Position numbers and translations under genes: made by a program. Below the pieces are notes generated by a model. That model saw only the letters and a list, made by a program, of their open reading frames with translations, did no database searches and was not told the origin of the DNA. From contig SHMX01000005.1 of NCBI GenBank assembly GCA_008080745.1, positions 30,001 to 62,000 of the forward strand: a DNA stretch of 32,000 bases, read 5' to 3'. Shown one piece after another: positions 3,494 to 11,606 of this stretch (positions are counted from its first letter, which is position 1; the number at the start of each line of letters is the position of its first letter). Origin of the DNA: Candidatus Thorarchaeota archaeon. GTDB taxonomy: Archaea; Asgardarchaeota; Thorarchaeia; Thorarchaeales; Thorarchaeaceae.

Positions 3494-4336
3494 GTGTCTA
3501 AGTCCGAAAAAGAAGTGTATGTGTTTTGTGAACAGTGTAAAAAGAATGTTTTACTGAGAGTACCTCTTGATTCTGATGCGGCAACTCGTGGCGGTCTCAT
3601 GTCGGTGGTATCAGTTCATGGAGATCCACCCCATGCTCTAATGGCATATCTTGACGCACAATTTAGGGTACGTGGTGTTGAATATCCGGCAGCAGCCCAG
3701 ACTGGCGATACTGGTAAAATTGAATCTGTTCCAGAAAGCAAGGTAGAACAATTGGAAGAGAAAGTAGAGCTCGGCATTCCTGCCCTTCTTGGTATGCTTC
3801 ACTCAAAACAAAAGGATGCTATCAAAGCACTGTCCATTATTATGGTCAACCTATTGACTAAGAAACGCATTTTTCTAATTCATGATGAGGAACAAATCGG
3901 CTCTTCGGTCATTTCAGCTCTTCATGATATTGTATCCTCTCAGGAAGAATTGATTACCCTGATCAGTCATGAGATTCTATCTCAGAGCGATTTGAATCCT
4001 TTCTGTGTTTATGATTTACAACAGACCAAATTTATTCACAAAGGGCCTAAGATTGATTCTAAGTATTTTGAGCGTACCCTGGACGATATAACAAAACATG
4101 AGAATCCATATTTTCGATTAAAGAATGAGATGAGCAAAATTGTTTACGCTTTTGAAAAATTACAAGAGATTCTTTCTTCTTTGTCCTCTCCTATTCTCGA
4201 TACAAAATTAGCAATGGATGCATCTATTGATTATGAGCTAATGCCCTTCCTTCTTGAATTGGCCGAGTCGGAGGGCATTGTTGTCCGGTCACTGGTTCAG
4301 AAAGATGGCTTGGGTAGAGCATTACGCAGCATCTAA
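3494..4336 (+). CDS. GTPase-associated protein: N-terminal CxxC/H/H putative Zn domain plus a DENN-like core
   Basis: 280-aa ORF with GTG start. N-terminal C12xxC15..H42..H47. The segment IIMVNLLTKKRIFLIH..IGSSVISALHDIV resembles the cDENN consensus as I recall it. Confidence 0.7.
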   Translation: MSKSEKEVYVFCEQCKKNVLLRVPLDSDAATRGGLMSVVSVHGDPPHALMAYLDAQFRVRGVEYPAAAQTGDTGKIESVPESKVEQLEEKVELGIPALLGMLHSKQKDAIKALSIIMVNLLTKKRIFLIHDEEQIGSSVISALHDIVSSQEELITLISHEILSQSDLNPFCVYDLQQTKFIHKGPKIDSKYFERTLDDITKHENPYFRLKNEMSKIVYAFEKLQEILSSLSSPILDTKLAMDASIDYELMPFLLELAESEGIVVRSLVQKDGLGRALRSI

Positions 4337-4357
4337 GCAATCTTAGAAATATTAACT

Positions 4358-4975
4358 ATGGTTAACCTTAATAAGGTGGAAACCCAACCTATATTGATGG
4401 AAATGTTAGAGTATGTTATTATTGTACTTGCAGTCGCTCTTTTTGGATTACAACACAGTGGTTTATCAGCACTCTCTGTGAAGACACGCATTATTGATCG
4501 TTGGGGAAAGACTGGTTATTCAAGACTCTACACCATTTCTGCGGGTATCACACTTCTCCTAGCATTTCTTTCGATGCAATTTTGGGACTGGTTCTATTTT
4601 CTATACAGTCCTGTTAATATTTTCACCTTTATCATCGGTTTAGTCTTAATTGTAATTGGAATGATAATTGCGTATATTGCCACAGGGGTGATATCAGTGA
4701 GCACCGTTGCTGATATGAGAACAGATCGAAAGGCAGAACTAGTTACTGATGGTATTTACTCGCGAATTCGTCATCCCTTATATCTAGCTACAATTCTCTT
4801 ATTCTTGGGTCTCGCACTGTTGTACTTTCCTTACTTGGAGGTGTTAGTATTCTCATTTGCTATGATTGGATACACGTTGATTGGGGCATATCTTGAAGAG
4901 AGAAAATTGGTGATTCATTATGGACAGGATTATGAACAATACCGAAAACAAGCTGGTTTCATCTTGCCAAAATGA
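4358..4975 (+). CDS. Isoprenylcysteine carboxyl methyltransferase (ICMT/PEMT/MddA-like) family membrane methyltransferase
   Basis: Multiple TM helices, hallmark LVTDGIYSRIRHPLY motif, EE..L...YG..Y..Y..Q C-terminus. Confidence 0.9.
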   Translation: MVNLNKVETQPILMEMLEYVIIVLAVALFGLQHSGLSALSVKTRIIDRWGKTGYSRLYTISAGITLLLAFLSMQFWDWFYFLYSPVNIFTFIIGLVLIVIGMIIAYIATGVISVSTVADMRTDRKAELVTDGIYSRIRHPLYLATILLFLGLALLYFPYLEVLVFSFAMIGYTLIGAYLEERKLVIHYGQDYEQYRKQAGFILPK

Positions 4976-4981
4976 GATGGT

Positions 4982-5440
4982 CTATCCGAAGTGGTTTCCC
5001 TTTGAATCAAGCATCTTCTGAATCTTTGATAGATGCCGTCCTCTTTTTACAGCTTTGGGGCTTATTTCATGCACTTTGCCATGCTCAACTACGTAATGTT
5101 CAACCTCCAATTCCGGGATGAAATGACGTTTTACATCCTCTGTGATAAAATGTAATTGGACACAATGAGGGCTGCCATCCACCGAAAGGACCACTATTCG
5201 TTTGAGTTGAGAATAACGCACAAAAGAGGCAATCTTGAAACCTGCTTGATTAACGTGAGATTCTTCCAAGCAGATATGAAGAACTGCATACCCTTCATCT
5301 CTCTGGGCGAATTCTTCAACTATCTCAGGATATCTCTCCATCATACAGGTTCCTATTAGAAGTAGTTGCCCCTTCTCTCGTATGTATTGAGCGCCTACGT
5401 TAGTACTCATTAATGGTTGCGATTCATCCATGAAGACCAC
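4982..5440 (-). CDS. Conserved putative Fe-S/metal-binding protein
   Basis: Motifs IGTC, ICLEESH and VDGSPHCVQLH resemble the stand-alone form of a domain found with 4Fe-4S ferredoxins. It abuts the upstream gene exactly. Confidence 0.7.
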   Translation of the reverse strand: MVFMDESQPLMSTNVGAQYIREKGQLLLIGTCMMERYPEIVEEFAQRDEGYAVLHICLEESHVNQAGFKIASFVRYSQLKRIVVLSVDGSPHCVQLHFITEDVKRHFIPELEVEHYVVEHGKVHEISPKAVKRGRHLSKIQKMLDSKGNHFG

Positions 5441-6400
5441 CTACCATTTTCTTCTGATTGGTGGTTCTTTTTCTTCTTCTCTTGGTATCCATTGGTCTAC
5501 CAAGGGTGCAGCAACTCTACCTATGATATCTCCTTCAAATACATAGTTCATACGTGCTAAGGATACAATAGCTCCATCATAGGGGCTTTTTACCTTGCCT
5601 CTGCCTTGTATCTCCCCAATGACATCGTTATTTCGAATGACCTCTCCTAGATTCACCTTGGGGACAAAAAATCCTTCATTATCTGCATTGATGTGTTGAA
5701 GTCTACCGGTGAAGATGCTTGAGGTTTCTATCTTCTCTCCTGGTATCATATCTTTAATTCTCATCAGATTGACAATGGCCTCTCTTACCTCCACTGCAGC
5801 CTGACTGTCAATCTCGTTCTTTGAACCTCTCATTTCGATGGAAACTGTAGGTATACCCTCATGAGCTGCCTCTGTTGTAAGAGATCCCCTAACGCCTGAA
5901 CTCTCAATTACCAACGGAAGGGATATTTGTGAGGCTAAGTTTCTAACATGGATATATTCTCGGTGCATTGCTATGACATGGCTAACGCATGCCTGTAATC
6001 CCGTCTTTAGATGAATTACAAAGTCGGCCTGGACTGCTCTTCTCCAAATTTCCCATGAAATCCGTTCTGTCACTGTTCCATGTTCATTTCCTGGGAATAC
6101 TGAATCCATGTCTTTCGAATCCAGTGGTGATACCTTTGTGCCTAGTCGAAAGGCTAATGGATTACCAACGGGTAGGACCGTTACAGAGCCATCGATTCGG
6201 TCGAGTTTCTCAAGATGCTGCATTATCAGAAAACTGGCATACATTCCAGTTGCTGAGAGACCGTCCATTGCAGCAAGGATGAGTACATTTGGTCTTTCTC
6301 TGCCAAATGTGTAAAATCCTAAGGTCGTACCTGTCTTGGGGTCGATATCGATTGCATCAACGGAGGCTTTTACCATATTCATCCCTTCTGCTGACTTCAT
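5441..6400 (-). CDS. Succinylglutamate desuccinylase/aspartoacylase (M14-like) family protein with degenerate Zn site
   Basis: Family scaffold (GSVTVLPVGNP, VFPG..GT.TER, GIPTVSIE) plus a C-terminal barrel-sandwich hybrid region (VKSPYDG). Canonical metal ligands are replaced. Confidence 0.85.
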   Translation of the reverse strand: MKSAEGMNMVKASVDAIDIDPKTGTTLGFYTFGRERPNVLILAAMDGLSATGMYASFLIMQHLEKLDRIDGSVTVLPVGNPLAFRLGTKVSPLDSKDMDSVFPGNEHGTVTERISWEIWRRAVQADFVIHLKTGLQACVSHVIAMHREYIHVRNLASQISLPLVIESSGVRGSLTTEAAHEGIPTVSIEMRGSKNEIDSQAAVEVREAIVNLMRIKDMIPGEKIETSSIFTGRLQHINADNEGFFVPKVNLGEVIRNNDVIGEIQGRGKVKSPYDGAIVSLARMNYVFEGDIIGRVAAPLVDQWIPREEEKEPPIRRKW

Positions 6401-6472
6401 TTCAATCTTGTACTTTTATCTAATAAGAAGCAGTGTATCACTTGGTTGGAAACTAGTGAATCTCTCGATTCT

Positions 6473-7198
6473 CTAGAAATTAAAGAGAAAGACATCTGTA
6501 CATCGCTCATCAGAGGAAAACGTGTCATGTCTACTAATTGCATAAGGGCTCCCTACCGATTTATGCTCAAACTCAAATAGGTCAGTATGTCCACAGCGTT
6601 CCGGGTTACCAATCCATATGAGGGGTATTCCGGATTCAACTAAATTGGCGCTTGCCATTGATAGGTATGGTTCCCAACTAACGATTGTCAGTGAGGGTTC
6701 GAATGTTTGAATAGTTTCTATAGCTGTCATTTTTTGTACCCATTTAGGATATCCAATATTATATCGCCCCGTCTTAGCATCTGTAGCTATAATTTTTTGA
6801 TCAATCTCCCGTTTCAGGAATTCTGACAATCTGCCATCTCCACTCATGACTTCAGCTATAATGATATTTTGTTTCTGGGGAGTAATGCTCTCTCGTACGA
6901 TATCTACCAGTTCGTGTATAAACTCTTGACTATATATTTGAAATATCCACCTTCCTCCAGCATTGGATCCATTACAGTATTCTTTTACGGAAAACTCGTT
7001 CTCAATGACTCCGAAGAGCTCGATAACTTTTGAGAACGGAAGTAGTTCCTCATGGACATCTATGAAGACATCTTCTCGCTCATACATCCATTTGGTAGAC
7101 ATACGCGGCGTTCTATCTACTCTCCTTTTTTCACTATCCATTCCGTCATAATCCACAAAGGTGATTACAAACATTATTCGATTTCGAAACTTTCCCAT
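6473..7198 (-). CDS. Putative class I SAM-dependent methyltransferase-fold protein
   Basis: IAEVMSGDGRLS (motif I-like) followed by IIATD (motif II-like) and IVSWEP. The start codon is uncertain. Confidence 0.65.
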   Translation of the reverse strand: MGKFRNRIMFVITFVDYDGMDSEKRRVDRTPRMSTKWMYEREDVFIDVHEELLPFSKVIELFGVIENEFSVKEYCNGSNAGGRWIFQIYSQEFIHELVDIVRESITPQKQNIIIAEVMSGDGRLSEFLKREIDQKIIATDAKTGRYNIGYPKWVQKMTAIETIQTFEPSLTIVSWEPYLSMASANLVESGIPLIWIGNPERCGHTDLFEFEHKSVGSPYAISRHDTFSSDERCTDVFLFNF

Positions 7199-7269
7199 GC
7201 TTGGTCATACTAAGTAGGCATGATACAAAAGCAAAAAGACCTATATACTTACTTTACTAATCTATCATA

Positions 7270-7782
7270 GTGGTCCTAATGGCAATCACACGAAGAATAC
7301 TACTGGTATCAGTACTTGTCATGTGTCTGACCTTCGCTTTACCCACGACGGTTCAGGGATGTGATGCTCAGTGCAAATATGATGATTTCAGTGTGGTCGT
7401 TGATTATGCCAATTATCTGGATCTTGACGGGGATTCTGCGGAAGACGACGTGTTGACCATTGCGCGGGTTTATCGAGATACTCAATATTCATCTGTACTG
7501 AAAACAAAGATATTCTCCTTTGTACAGGTTCCATCAGGAAGGATGTTTCACAGCATCGTGAATGTGAACGGTGATTATTCAAATCTTGTGATCACAATCG
7601 AGTGGTTTAACACAGCAAAAGAAGCTGGTTGGTACGACCTTGATATCTTTGTGATAGTTATCACAACAGATGGGGCTCAGTTCCTTTATACCAGTTTATC
7701 CTTTGATCCGCCTGAAGGCGGCGATCCTGGCCCTCCGTTATATCCGGATGTGGAAATCAACGAAACTGTAAGTCTGTCATAA
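7270..7782 (+). CDS. Secreted hypothetical protein with a DxDGD Ca-binding-like loop
   Basis: N-terminal RR plus hydrophobic signal peptide, DLDGDSAEDD motif, beta-rich body, Pro/Gly-rich C-terminus. Confidence 0.75.
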   Translation: MVLMAITRRILLVSVLVMCLTFALPTTVQGCDAQCKYDDFSVVVDYANYLDLDGDSAEDDVLTIARVYRDTQYSSVLKTKIFSFVQVPSGRMFHSIVNVNGDYSNLVITIEWFNTAKEAGWYDLDIFVIVITTDGAQFLYTSLSFDPPEGGDPGPPLYPDVEINETVSLS

Positions 7783-7832
7783 GATGTGCCTGTGGAAACC
7801 CACTCTGGGTGAGAGAGAGTGTGTGTGTAGCG

Positions 7833-8969
7833 ATGACCGGAAAACGACTCAAGGATTATCTGTCCCTTTTAATCGCATTACAGAATAATCCATTTGGGAC
7901 TACAGATGAACTTTCCGATGAATCCGATATATCCAAACCCACAGTAATAAAGCGTCTTCGTGTGCTACAGGGTGCAGAACCTATTGTTCCAGAAACCAGT
8001 CCGAAAAAATACTTTACAGTCGAGCCAATTCTGGATTATAGTACATTGGGCCTTGAACCAGTTGATATTCTTGCAGAAACTAAGACTCTTGATGGTGTAA
8101 AGGCTTTAGAGCAAATTGCACTTGCACATCCCTATACTGTTTACCGCAGTAGGTGTTTTGGTTCTCCCAATGGGATACTACTGCAATTTCGAACCCCGCT
8201 TGATACTAGAAAGAAAATCGAAGAATTGTTCGAATCGTTATGGGATCGAGATATTTTACTTAACTATCAGATACTCCCAACCAATAATTCAATTGTTCGT
8301 TATACATCTATGCAGCTAAAGGGGTGGGATGCCAACGATGCAAGATGGGAATTTGATTGGAAGACATGGTTCAATTCACCGACCAAGAAAACCCTTGAAC
8401 CGCTTCCCGAATCTGAGCCAGGGAAATCTTTGGAATGGATGACGAAAAATGATCTTCATATCATTCGAGAGCTGATGATAGACACGAGAAGAAAAAATAC
8501 TGAAATTATAGATGAATTAGAATCGAGAGGTATTAGCTTTACGCCTCAGACTTTTGGTCGTCATCTTCAGATAATCAAAGATGAGTGTATTCGAGGCTAT
8601 CGTGTGGTGATTGCACCCGAGCCTTTCGATGTGCTCAATAACATACTAGTTATAGGAAAATCCGAACAATCTCATCTTGAAAAACTGGTTGCTAAGACTC
8701 AATTTCGGGACTTTCCTTTTGAGTCTACGATACGAATTGCTGATGAGAACCTATTCTGGTTTGTCCGGTTAAATCAACATCATATCTCACCATTTTTGAA
8801 TGGCCTATTCGATACTCTCAAAGAAACAAAGATTTGCTTTTTGGACTATGAACACTCATACCTCTACAATATCTGGCCTGATGCTTTTGATGAAGATAAA
8901 AAAGAGTGGCGTGCTGATGACGCCTTTTTACTTGACAGAGTTCTCTCAAGTTTGAAGAATCTTCACTAA
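7833..8969 (+). CDS. Tandem Lrp/AsnC-like winged-helix transcriptional regulator
   Basis: HTH1 (TTDELSDESDISKPTVIKRLRVL) and HTH2 (DLHIIRELMIDTRR..TFGRHLQII..IRGYRVVI), each followed by an alpha/beta effector-like domain. The ATG at 7833 is preferred over the GTG at 7809. Confidence 0.8.
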   Translation: MTGKRLKDYLSLLIALQNNPFGTTDELSDESDISKPTVIKRLRVLQGAEPIVPETSPKKYFTVEPILDYSTLGLEPVDILAETKTLDGVKALEQIALAHPYTVYRSRCFGSPNGILLQFRTPLDTRKKIEELFESLWDRDILLNYQILPTNNSIVRYTSMQLKGWDANDARWEFDWKTWFNSPTKKTLEPLPESEPGKSLEWMTKNDLHIIRELMIDTRRKNTEIIDELESRGISFTPQTFGRHLQIIKDECIRGYRVVIAPEPFDVLNNILVIGKSEQSHLEKLVAKTQFRDFPFESTIRIADENLFWFVRLNQHHISPFLNGLFDTLKETKICFLDYEHSYLYNIWPDAFDEDKKEWRADDAFLLDRVLSSLKNLH

Positions 8970-10018
8970 CTTGGACCTTTGGTCACTTTGAAGACAGATA
9001 TGGGAGTAGCAGTTTCAAAAGCAATAGCTCCTGATTCCATCGCCCACTCTTCCATGTCGTCCTTGGAAAAGAATCCATGGACACCCTCTACGACTTTGAA
9101 ATGTGCCTCATTGTACATGTTTGTATCTGGGTAAAAGTTCTGTGTACCAAATAGGAAACCGCCGGGTTTCAGTACTCGCATCATCTCCGTAATCGCAAGT
9201 TTCGGCTCAGTCCAATGCAATACTTGCGAGGCAAATACGATATCAAAGGATTCATCCTCATAGGGAATCCGTTCAGCATATCCTGGACGAAATTCTACCG
9301 GGAACTCATTCACGGTATCCTTGATACTTAGATCATGTCCATTATACTCTGAAACCATTTGAGGGAATTCTTCGCTTGCTATACGGAGAAGTTTCTCATT
9401 TGGGTCAATACCTACTATCTGCATGGGGGACCCAGGGAAGAAAAAGTCGTTCTCATAGTAGTATGACCAAATTGCGGCTGTCCCCCGACCGTTTCCGGAA
9501 CCAACATCTAAGAATCTCACTGGTTCCTTTAGGGCGTCGGAAAAGGCAAAAGCGGCACGTCTGATTTGTTCATAGAGTTTGTTCGATAAAGCGTCATCCC
9601 AGTTGAATAAATTCAACCCTCCAGTAAACTGTAAGCATCGTCCTCTTAATCTATCTGGAATTGCTCTTGCATGGTCAACCCACAATTCTCTCATAGCGTC
9701 ATCAAAACAACTGGGACATGTCCAATCAAATTCAATGGGCCCCTCCATGAAAAGTTGACCATCATTTTCTTGAATAACCTCGTCTTCAATCAATATACCA
9801 ATTAGGTATTCTAAGAAATCTATCTCAGTATATCTGAACTCTGCAGCAATCTGCATGAGGGTTCGTGGAGACTGTAAATAATCGAACCAACCCTCATTTC
9901 TTAGCACTCCAAGAATATTGCCTCTGAAGAAGCTGTCAATATCCTTTCGGAGCTTTGATACATTTAATCCAAGTTTCATCAATTCTTTCCATGCTCTCAT
10001 CTTTCTTATCATTGTCAA
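8966..10018 (-). CDS. Class I SAM-dependent methyltransferase with an N-terminal helical/wHTH-like domain
   Basis: FLDVGSGNG, GIDPN, AERIPYEDESFDIV and RVLKPGG motifs. Confidence 0.92.
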   Translation of the reverse strand: MTMIRKMRAWKELMKLGLNVSKLRKDIDSFFRGNILGVLRNEGWFDYLQSPRTLMQIAAEFRYTEIDFLEYLIGILIEDEVIQENDGQLFMEGPIEFDWTCPSCFDDAMRELWVDHARAIPDRLRGRCLQFTGGLNLFNWDDALSNKLYEQIRRAAFAFSDALKEPVRFLDVGSGNGRGTAAIWSYYYENDFFFPGSPMQIVGIDPNEKLLRIASEEFPQMVSEYNGHDLSIKDTVNEFPVEFRPGYAERIPYEDESFDIVFASQVLHWTEPKLAITEMMRVLKPGGFLFGTQNFYPDTNMYNEAHFKVVEGVHGFFSKDDMEEWAMESGAIAFETATPISVFKVTKGPS

Positions 10019-10027
10019 TCACTCCTG

Positions 10028-10942
10028 TTATCCAAGAAGTCCTCTCCTCTCAACGTGTTCCAGCATATCGAACACTTTCTGTATTCTCCCAATCTGCCCT
10101 TGTTCTAAGAGGTCGATTACACTCGCTTTTCCACTGAGAAGTGGGACCAGAATCTCTTCTGCAAAATCGAATTTTCGTTCTACACGATCAACTATGGAAG
10201 GTATCCGGGGAATGTACTGGAAGTCGATTTTTGAAAAAAGGCGGTCATCCCCAACTAGCTTCAAAAGAACTGACGAATCAATCTTAGGGTTGACCGCAAT
10301 AGCGTGCAGACCAAGGACAAGGAGTCTTTTGTCGGGGATGGCATCTCGATGTGGTTCTCTTATTGTTTCCTTAAGCAAAGTACTCAGAGAACCAAAAGCT
10401 GCGGGGCCTTTGAGTGCACCACAGGCTATTCTTGAGCCCTTTGTCCACACACGTAGATCCTGGTCAGCGATGGTGAAATTCAATTCATCAGGGAGACTCT
10501 CATAGACCCTCTCTGCCTCCTCAACTCGCTGTGCCAGAAGTCTTGCAAGCTCAAGTATTCTTACCTCGGAACTTGTTACACCTTCTAATACCCATGAGTC
10601 GTCTCTATCCATGATAAAGACACAATCGAAAAATGGATGTGATTCCAACGTAGCAGGCTTTTGAGATACTAACCAGAGTTGTTGCTCTGCTTTTTCTCCT
10701 TTAACCTGTTCAACAAAAGCGTCTTTATGTCCGCGAAAGAGATCCATATGATCTACGATTATTGTGTTCACGTGACGCTCTGAACCAACCATATGCGAAA
10801 CTCTGTAGGTGGTCAGTTGCATACCAAAGAATTTCTCATGTGGCGTTTTGGATTCGAAGGTGGTGGGATCTCTAGGATTGAAACTCACCCTTTCATTACA
10901 CACAGCACATTGGAATGTGGATACCTGTTTTGTTTGACTCAT
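10028..10942 (-). CDS. GTPase-associated protein: N-terminal CxxC/H/H putative Zn domain plus a possible longin/roadblock-like domain
   Basis: 304-aa ORF 10 nt downstream of a GTPase. C12xxC15..H50..H57..D64..R70G71. The central beta-beta-alpha-beta-beta-alpha pattern is assigned by inference. Confidence 0.7.
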   Translation of the reverse strand: MSQTKQVSTFQCAVCNERVSFNPRDPTTFESKTPHEKFFGMQLTTYRVSHMVGSERHVNTIIVDHMDLFRGHKDAFVEQVKGEKAEQQLWLVSQKPATLESHPFFDCVFIMDRDDSWVLEGVTSSEVRILELARLLAQRVEEAERVYESLPDELNFTIADQDLRVWTKGSRIACGALKGPAAFGSLSTLLKETIREPHRDAIPDKRLLVLGLHAIAVNPKIDSSVLLKLVGDDRLFSKIDFQYIPRIPSIVDRVERKFDFAEEILVPLLSGKASVIDLLEQGQIGRIQKVFDMLEHVERRGLLG

Positions 10943-10952
10943 TCCTTATCCC

Positions 10953-11606
10953 TCACCTGTTTGTGAATAGGTTGTTTACCAGCCACTGTCTTACCTCATC
11001 TAGTCCTGAGCCAGTTAAGCAGCTAGTTTCAAAGTATGATACAATCTGTGGATTGCTCTGCAATACAGCTTCAATCAGACCCTTGTCCATCGAACAATTC
11101 AAGTCACACTTGTTTCTAATCAGAACAAAATCGGGTGTATCGAATCGAGTTTGGGACACATAGTATCCGGTCAATAGATCCACCCATTCTGTTAGATCAA
11201 TCAGAGATTGAATATTATCACTGGCGAAAATAAGCAGGATTACATCGACTCCGCCAAGAGCAGTTCGACTGATATCCTTGAGTGCATGAATTGGCGAATT
11301 GAGTTGACCTGCGATGTCGACCATTTGACACAGCCCTTCAATATCCTCGTCAACAAGGTCTGCTGCAGGAATGACTTCCAAATCTACAAAGAGCGTCCGG
11401 TGGTATTCCGCTTCGTCCTTAAGAAGCTCCTTTAAGCTCTTTCTCTCTCTCAACACGGTCAGCAGACTAGACTTGCCTACGGCCCCAGACCCTGCCATCA
11501 GAATCTTTCGTATTCCTGAATGGAGTTTTATTCTTTCAATTAGGCTTCGTGATGTCTCAGGTTCGGTTTCTTTGGTCTTCAATTCGCTCGTACTCATTGC
11601 TATCAC
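10953..11606 (-). CDS. Ras-superfamily small GTPase (divergent)
   Basis: G1 GSGAVGKSS, G3 DIAGQ, G4 NKCD, G5-like ETSCL. An alternative ATG is at 11597. Confidence 0.92.
   Translation of the reverse strand: MIAMSTSELKTKETEPETSRSLIERIKLHSGIRKILMAGSGAVGKSSLLTVLRERKSLKELLKDEAEYHRTLFVDLEVIPAADLVDEDIEGLCQMVDIAGQLNSPIHALKDISRTALGGVDVILLIFASDNIQSLIDLTEWVDLLTGYYVSQTRFDTPDFVLIRNKCDLNCSMDKGLIEAVLQSNPQIVSYFETSCLTGSGLDEVRQWLVNNLFTNR

Follow-up and report, generated by a model that had tools for sequence, protein, structure and literature searches.

An undescribed zinc-ribbon-type module on DENN and longin proteins, a probable partner of one clade of small GTPases in Asgard archaea

Introduction

In Asgard archaea, eukaryote-like small GTPases number in the dozens and occur alongside many longin, roadblock, DENN and TRAPP-like proteins, and few regulators have so far been assigned to a particular GTPase. 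In the cultured strain MK-D1, genome layout seldom shows GTPase-regulator pairs (Tran et al. 2024, PMC10933270). The window analysed here, a 32,000-nucleotide stretch of a 3.16 Mb Asgard genome (Candidatus Thorarchaeota archaeon; G000:C5:30001-62000, where G000 is the genome and C1, C3, C5 and C6 are contigs of it), holds two genes, P0001 and P0002, that each directly follow a small GTPase gene on the same strand, with gaps of 86 bp (P0003-P0001) and 10 bp (P0004-P0002). The closest relatives of the window proteins are labelled Thorarchaeota or Lokiarchaeota. The products of P0001 and P0002 begin with a similar set of Cys, His, Asp and Arg-Gly residues and continue into different domains. A first-pass annotation, which had already noted the position of both genes, read the shared segment as a mobile C2H2 zinc module that docks varied regulators onto Asgard small GTPases. 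The locus thus raises the question of whether the two segments are copies of one module and, if so, what ties it to the GTPases. We find that the module is an undescribed, Asgard-wide, zinc-ribbon-type family.

Two homologous modules on unrelated proteins

P0001 (3494..4336, plus strand) encodes 280 residues from a GTG start, and its orthologues, of 271-281 residues, align with it from end to end. Its residues 1-67 (3494..3694, plus strand) form the putative zinc module, with C12, C15, H42, H47, D54, R60 and G61, and a disordered linker (residues 68-90) precedes a DENN-fold domain at residues 89-269 (3758..4300, plus strand). In P0002 (10028..10942, minus strand; 304 residues), the module occupies residues 1-79 (10706..10942, minus strand), with C12, C15, H50, H57, D64, R70 and G71, followed by a longin-fold domain at residues about 103-220 (10283..10636, minus strand) and then by a helical C-terminal domain. 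These residues and their spacings are present as first annotated, over a span (3527-10909) whose ends are the two C12 codons, and they are invariant in 10/10 orthologues of P0001 and 19/19 of P0002. The DENN-like and longin-like labels given to the remaining parts of the proteins were also correct: the C-terminal part of P0001 has the cDENN plus dDENN fold, the central part of P0002 is a longin-type alpha/beta sandwich, and structure searches with the whole models of both proteins returned results filled by DENN and longin domains. P0001 is devoid of the N-terminal longin (uDENN) lobe and carries the zinc module in its place; no alignment of this module to the longin lobes of DENN proteins was found (VIA).

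Pairwise BLASTP found no match between P0001 and P0002 (best E 0.56), and HHalign with shallow alignments gave a marginal result (E 0.03, Prob 1.7%). With deep alignments of 157 P0001-type and 33 P0002-type sequences, HHalign matched the two modules over 59 columns with Prob 94.7% and E 6.3e-8, and every motif residue, from the two Cys and two His to the Asp and Arg-Gly, fell in register. The real pair scored 37.3, compared with 13.0 for the reversed template and at most 17.2 (E 0.0035) for 30 column shuffles. A hidden Markov model (HMM) of either subfamily failed to reach the other, both in this genome and among the top 146 representatives, and the link between the two types therefore rests on the profile-profile comparison and on their shared context.

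AlphaFold2 (AF2) models place strands at residues 5-12, 17-24, 36-42, 47-53 and 59-63 of the P0001 module (predicted local distance difference test, pLDDT, 62-80), and at residues 8-11, 18-21, 36-38, 41-52, 55-63 and 69-79 of the P0002 module (model pLDDT 62-91). Common to both is the order strand, C-x2-C turn, strand, helix of 3-4 residues, strand, His...His turn, strand, Asp/Arg turn and final strand. With this shared strand order and the profile homology, the two segments are not predicted to fold differently. We conclude that the N-terminal modules of P0001 and P0002 are homologous, and we hold with high confidence that they represent a real, homologous module of metal type.

Putative ligands, distribution and predicted fold of the family

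Across 157 family sequences (P0001 numbering), C12, C15 and D54 are conserved in 100%, H47 in 97%, an aromatic residue at position 52 (Y/F52) in 94% and R60 in 92%. H42 occurs in 83%, and otherwise a Cys stands 2 or 4 residues ahead of H47. The family pattern is thus C-x2-C ... H/C-x(1-6)-H, then the invariant Asp and the 92% Arg. His and Cys exchange at one position while the other three are fixed, which is the pattern predicted by a four-ligand zinc site, and the ligands suggest that the module binds zinc. Two elements of the initial description need correction, given that the motif is not strictly C2H2, its third ligand being His or Cys, and that the Gly of the Arg-Gly pair, conserved in only 52% of the sequences, is no family-wide feature. 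Many members, including P0001 and excluding P0002, carry H-G-x-P in the loop between strands 3 and 4 (G 64%, P 55%).

The proposed mobility of the putative zinc module was borne out, as members occur in many fusions or alone. Stand-alone proteins of 65-100 residues are common; other members are fused to DENN, longin, TPR (740-765 residues), DUF742-like winged-helix, V4R, HTH_47 or DegV domains, and in some proteins the module lies at the C-terminus. HTH_47 fusions make up 6/140 family representatives. Fusions to V4R (Bet3/TRAPP-like) were seen in 8/140. One further module protein of this genome, of 220 residues (G000:C3:285777-286439, plus strand), has no nearby GTPase gene, and no Pfam family was found in it, its C-terminal domain included.

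A profile of 16 module sequences, searched against 1.84 billion proteins, retrieved 716 cluster representatives at E<=1e-3 and 42 at E<=1e-10. Of 151 Asgard genomes sampled, 126 matched the module profile, with as many as 14 copies in one genome; the P0002-type subfamily has a more restricted range (18/151 genomes). The approximately 20 members with a source name are all annotated as hypothetical and are nearly all from Asgard archaea (Thor-, Hermod-, Hod-, Heimdall-, Njord- and Promethearchaeota), one of them being labelled Korarchaeota only and another Korarchaeota plus Njordarchaeia.

The first-pass annotation did not recognise the module as a named Pfam domain, and our searches agree: no match covering it was found in Pfam, NCBIfam or the sequences of the Protein Data Bank (PDB), and no paper describing it in the searchable literature. 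TackOD1 (PF18551) was considered and rejected, as no match lay at a module position and the best in the whole genome scored 14 bits, below the cut-off of 32. The ESM Atlas sets the module among unnamed Asgard clusters. The nearest neighbours of the Atlas model of a 73-residue stand-alone member are Asgard hypothetical proteins (template modelling, TM, score 0.69-0.90), and its nearest named fold is Zn_ribbon_21 (TM 0.55/0.64 over 54 residues). The first knuckle of a few members gave weak matches to Zn_ribbon_Brz, CpXC and Lar and, in PDB sequences, to ribosomal and RNA polymerase zinc ribbons; on the window proteins, no named zinc-ribbon family was significant.

In the models, the module consists of two beta-hairpin knuckles, with C-x2-C between strands 1 and 2 and H-x4-H (P0001) or H-x6-H (P0002) between strands 3 and 4, and on this basis its predicted fold class is zinc ribbon. 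It resembles the group of Zn_ribbon_21 (PF14255) and Zn_ribbon_Brz (PF23454) in having two such knuckles with two metal ligands each. Unlike in those zinc ribbons, whose second knuckle is C-x2-C, that of the module is His/Cys-x(1-6)-His, and the module has an extra fifth strand with the invariant Asp and the conserved Arg. The Asp would end strand 4 and the Arg would lie in the turn that leads into strand 5. The module's genomic link to a single GTPase clade, described below, likewise sets it apart from zinc ribbons.

Linkage of the module to one GTPase clade

The GTPases of the two window pairs are P0003 (2886..3407, plus strand; 173 residues; Pfam Ras E 7.2e-23, Roc 2.3e-19 and Arf 4.1e-18) and P0004 (10953..11606, minus strand; 217 residues from a GTG, with an ATG at 11597; Pfam Ras E 1.9e-9). 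Their Pfam Ras scores are 81.4 and 37.7 bits, respectively, compared with a cut-off of 21.6, and both have the G1 P-loop, G3 DxxGQ and G4 NKxD motifs. The G1 (GSGAVGKS), G3 (DxAGQ) and G4 (NKxD) motifs of P0004 are conserved in nine orthologues, and the catalytic Gln is kept.

Twelve module genes (eight of the main profile, three of the P0002 type and a divergent one at C1:651942-652241) and 36 Ras-family matches were found in G000. Five of the 12 immediately follow a GTPase gene (binomial 1e-7), and two more are in the same operon as, or convergent to, one. In other genomes, P0002-type loci have a GTPase gene directly upstream on the same strand in 11/12 cases. Across five other genomes from four families, 11/39 module genes lie within about 1.3 kb of a GTPase gene, where about 1.4 would be expected (P about 1e-7), seven of the 39 being directly downstream. 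Three family representatives were looked up for gene context; P0077 adjoins a GTPase gene, and P0088 and P0100 do not.

A maximum likelihood tree of 27 GTPases of G000 contains one nine-member clade (support 95/93) to which every GTPase with a neighbouring module gene belongs, including a tandem trio and the GTPase of the operon with the divergent module. For each of the nine, the distance to a module gene is about 2 kb or less, compared with 0/18 of the others with one closer than 2 kb (Fisher 2e-7). P0003 and P0004 both belong to this clade, and 19/20 GTPases found beside module genes elsewhere join it as well (28 rows, support 92/89), the sole GTPase outside being the second, more distal one of its locus. 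Within the clade, subclades track the architecture of the partner (DENN, the 156-residue DUF742-like type, TPR or longin), indicating that GTPase and module protein diversified together. From these data, the module is probably a dedicated partner of one GTPase clade. By eye, no obvious clade-specific signature was seen at the GTPase positions of the predicted interface described below.

In a partial record from Thorarchaeota, P0037 (478 residues), a single reading frame runs from a P0004-like GTPase into a P0002-like zinc-longin protein.

The clade also bears on another explanation, that of a generic zinc ribbon with a structural or nucleic-acid-binding role and no partner of its own, whose linkage to GTPases would stem from the DENN, longin or TPR domains joined to it. 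The weak first-knuckle matches to zinc-ribbon families and to ribosomal and RNA polymerase zinc ribbons would fit such a role, as would the winged-helix (HTH_47) fusions and the DegV fusions, which are unrelated to GTPases. However, every clade GTPase in G000 has a nearby module gene whatever the fused domain, lone modules attached to no other domain also occur in GTPase operons, and conservation extends beyond the metal ligands (Y52, D54, R60). We regard a generic ribbon as quite unlikely.

Predicted docking on the alpha3/alpha4 face

We predicted the complex of P0004 residues 28-217 (9-row alignment) with the P0002-type module (19 rows), with GTP and Zn included. The interaction score (ipSAE) was 0.66, compared with 0.39 for the best control, a mark that 58/80 solved complexes and 2/110 mismatched pairs had reached in calibration; three runs agreed in 100% of contacts, and the partner pLDDT was at least 87. 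On the side of the module, the predicted interface comprises residues 36-41, 43, 62 and 70-73, including the invariant F39, G40, M41, L43, I62 and R70-K73. The first of these, F39 to L43, are the region that the first-pass annotation had singled out as a G-x-L strand ahead of the first His. On the side of P0004, the predicted contacts are residues 132-139 and 172-185, corresponding to helices alpha3 and alpha4 and lying away from switch I and switch II.

We put physical docking of the module on alpha3/alpha4 at about an even chance. The interpretation of the first-pass annotation is supported overall, with the corrections given in the text, and its docking of varied regulators onto Asgard GTPases agrees with this single controlled prediction. 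Overall, by a modest preference, we favour a reading in which the module is a portable zinc-ribbon handle that would dock onto the GTPase clade via alpha3/alpha4; the zinc, the docking, its face and the roles of the attached domains are the parts of it that we infer. The handle would be either encoded alone or fused to domains of GTPase-regulator type (DENN, longin plus helical, TPR, DUF742-like winged helix-turn-helix or V4R/Bet3-like), and would bind the alpha3/alpha4 face of its cognate GTPase through the edge of strand 3 (F39, G40, M41 and L43 in P0002) and the Arg-Gly turn. With the switch regions left unoccupied, the attached DENN or longin domain, or other partners, could serve as exchange factor, GTPase-activating protein (GAP) or effector.

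The conserved Arg could instead mark the module as a catalytic GAP element, with R60/R70 as an arginine finger in the active site of the GTPase, as in the longin GAPs FLCN, SMCR8 and NPRL2. The conservation of the Arg in 92%, and of the Asp in 100%, of the 157 members would agree with it, and the beta-beta-(short helix)-beta-beta-beta order resembles the start of the longin fold. FLCN-type longins, including Asgard ones, have both an arginine finger and, in a hairpin loop, a Gly-Pro motif (PMC12290439), and the H-G-x-P of many module members lies in the loop between strands 3 and 4. However, in the predicted complex R70 touches P0004 residues 176-177 on alpha4, far from the nucleotide pocket; P0002 lacks the Gly-Pro and carries a full longin domain after its module; two stand-alone paralogues lack the Arg; and no sequence match to Folliculin or other longin families was found. 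The module is itself without a complete longin fold, its AF2 models having 5-6 strands, one helix of 3-4 residues and no flanking helices. The catalytic Gln kept by the linked GTPases is neutral in this respect. An arginine finger appears unlikely to us.

Neighbouring genes and membrane-linked cassettes

Upstream of P0003 and P0001, and first in the string P0005-P0003-P0001, lies P0005 (2141..2863, plus strand), which encodes a 240-residue membrane protein with about seven hydrophobic helices and no Pfam family. Paralogues of it lie directly upstream of two other module genes of G000 (L006:6120-6785 and L002:7113-7781, both minus strand), so that the genome has three paralogous loci of this kind, with proteins of 220-240 residues, about seven helices and no Pfam family. 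Homologues of P0005 are found upstream of P0001 orthologues in 7/12 loci, some of them without a GTPase gene. These arrangements suggest a cassette of membrane receptor, GTPase and DENN protein.

Two operons of G000 join a stand-alone module, a GTPase, a longin-like protein and a multi-pass membrane protein of 457-479 residues. The first (G000:C1:649590-652241, minus strand) has four genes, for the divergent zinc module (100 residues), a 126-residue longin/roadblock-like protein, a 479-residue multi-pass membrane protein and a 185-residue clade GTPase; a similar operon lies at G000:C6:31865-34607. Elsewhere in the genome (G000:C1:529248-532781), three tandem paralogous clade GTPases face a 262-residue module protein, itself preceded by a P0005-like membrane protein. 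A 744-residue TPR-type module protein at C1:360640 (L004:5188-8874, equal to G000:C1:359188-362874) follows genes for an FtsX-like permease and an ABC ATPase, with no GTPase gene among them; the nearest GTPase gene is 2 kb away, divergent and outside the module-linked clade. We conclude that the module belongs to membrane-linked GTPase signalling cassettes.

Such cassettes also allow for a different docking partner, namely the co-encoded polytopic membrane protein or another partner that is not a GTPase, with the GTPase link being indirect, through a shared membrane signalling complex. The P0005-family genes upstream of P0001-type genes, in part at loci with no GTPase gene, would agree with this, and so would the two operons in which stand-alone modules occur with a longin-like protein, a large membrane protein and a GTPase, and the fact that most family members have no GTPase gene nearby. 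However, P0002-type and TPR-type loci have no conserved membrane-protein gene in the stretches examined, yet the GTPase is kept (11/12); the GTPases group, in their clade and its subclades, according to the module protein; and the predicted module-GTPase complex passes its controls. We consider docking onto a membrane protein or another such partner unlikely.

Several points nevertheless weigh against the reading of the module as a portable handle for the GTPase clade. Among P0001 orthologues, the membrane protein is a steadier neighbour (7/12) than the GTPase (5/12). In the best 30 loci of the main profile, a GTPase gene is nearby in 10/30, and in 0/11 of the small stand-alone genes; in the five other genomes, 28/39 module genes are away from any GTPase gene. 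One of these five, G144, from another Asgard family, has 14 module genes and 55 Ras-family matches, with 0/14 module genes within 4 kb of a GTPase gene, and in its lineage the module works in trans or with other partners. The unlinked GTPases in the tree are drawn from G000 only, and the P0037 fusion, a single partial record, may be natural or may reflect a lost stop codon or a gene-calling or assembly artefact. The predicted docking comes from one pair, P0004 and the P0002 module, and the calibration counts given for its score hold only roughly, because the prediction used our own alignments and the calibration had been run without small molecules. The enrichment of GTPase genes around module genes, which the first-pass annotation had made a condition of its proposal, is thus strong but partial, varying by subfamily and lineage: it holds for the P0002-type loci and for the five-genome sample, and most members, above all the small stand-alone ones, lie away from any GTPase gene.

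Two methyltransferase genes complete the surroundings of the module genes in the window. P0007 (8966..10018, minus strand), directly downstream of P0002, encodes an S-adenosylmethionine (SAM)-dependent methyltransferase (Pfam Methyltransf_11 E 3.4e-19), and a homologue of it lies beside the pair of GTPase and zinc-longin genes in 8/9 loci of other Asgard genomes. P0006 (4358-4975, plus strand), after P0001, encodes a PEMT/ICMT-like membrane methyltransferase; as a conserved partner of P0001 it was considered and rejected, the orthologous loci showing no such gene within their short flanks. A PEMT/ICMT gene (L054:725-1348) also adjoins the gene of an unrelated module protein, P0100, on a metagenome contig, which may be a coincidence.

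Comparison with known systems

The family that the module defines is sizeable, unnamed in Pfam and NCBIfam, and without sequence relatives among solved structures. Being recognisable from sequence and marking the partners of one GTPase clade, the module would allow a list of cognate pairs to be read from genomes, and it suggests how one GTPase family could recruit different regulators through domain shuffling.

Actinobacterial conservons consist of a membrane sensor (CvnA), a roadblock protein (CvnB), a DUF742 protein (CvnC) and a GTPase (CvnD). In the module cassettes, too, a small GTPase shares its operon with a roadblock/longin protein, a membrane protein and a small adaptor, and one G000 paralogue, encoded right after a GTPase gene, combines the zinc module with a DUF742-like winged helix (DUF742 E 5.9e-6, 26.5 bits compared with a cut-off of 27). 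To our knowledge, CvnC proteins have no such zinc module. Unlike in conservons, the membrane partners here are not histidine-kinase-like, no such sensor being seen in the two four-part operons of G000, and the GTPases are Rab/Arf-like by Pfam. By analogy, then, the cassettes appear to resemble conservons in logic, not in parts.

Among eukaryotic proteins, the cysteine-rich domain of Raf, the zinc finger of Rabphilin and Mss4 are zinc domains that touch small GTPases. They are similar to the module in being small and zinc-stabilised and in adding a GTPase contact beside the main regulatory or effector domain. Their folds and ligand patterns are unrelated to it and no homology is claimed, the predicted face of contact being alpha3/alpha4 in our case.

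In folliculin/Lst7, the longin and DENN domains follow an N-terminal split element, HxCx2H ... Cx2C, that is putatively zinc-binding (Nookala et al. 2012, PMC3438538; PMC4703059), and its parallel with P0001 is suggestive. The ligands of the module are ordered and spaced differently; in FLCN, 28-56 residues separate the two parts of the motif, and a full longin domain, absent from P0001, comes next. Searches returned no sequence match of the module to folliculin, nor any other sequence or structure link, and common ancestry of the two elements is speculative. It is very unlikely, in our judgement, that the module is the archaeal forerunner of the folliculin/Lst7 zinc element, with the zinc-DENN protein, GTPase and seven-helix protein as precursor of an FLCN-type membrane-bound regulator system.

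A related arrangement already described in Asgard genomes is an operon in which a Rab-like GTPase stands with a LAMTOR1-like roadblock protein and with a DENN protein proposed as a GTPase regulator (Liu et al., bioRxiv 10.1101/2020.10.19.343400). P0003-P0001 is like it in placing a Rab-like GTPase gene beside a DENN gene and differs from it in that the upstream gene encodes a seven-helix membrane protein and not a roadblock protein; the accessible part of that text makes no mention of an N-terminal zinc module or of longin, TPR and stand-alone proteins that share it. The occurrence of DENN genes next to Rab-like GTPase genes in Asgard archaea was, on that source, already known. What is undescribed, as judged from the family libraries and searchable papers, is the family as such, together with the Asp/Arg extension and the link to a single GTPase clade.

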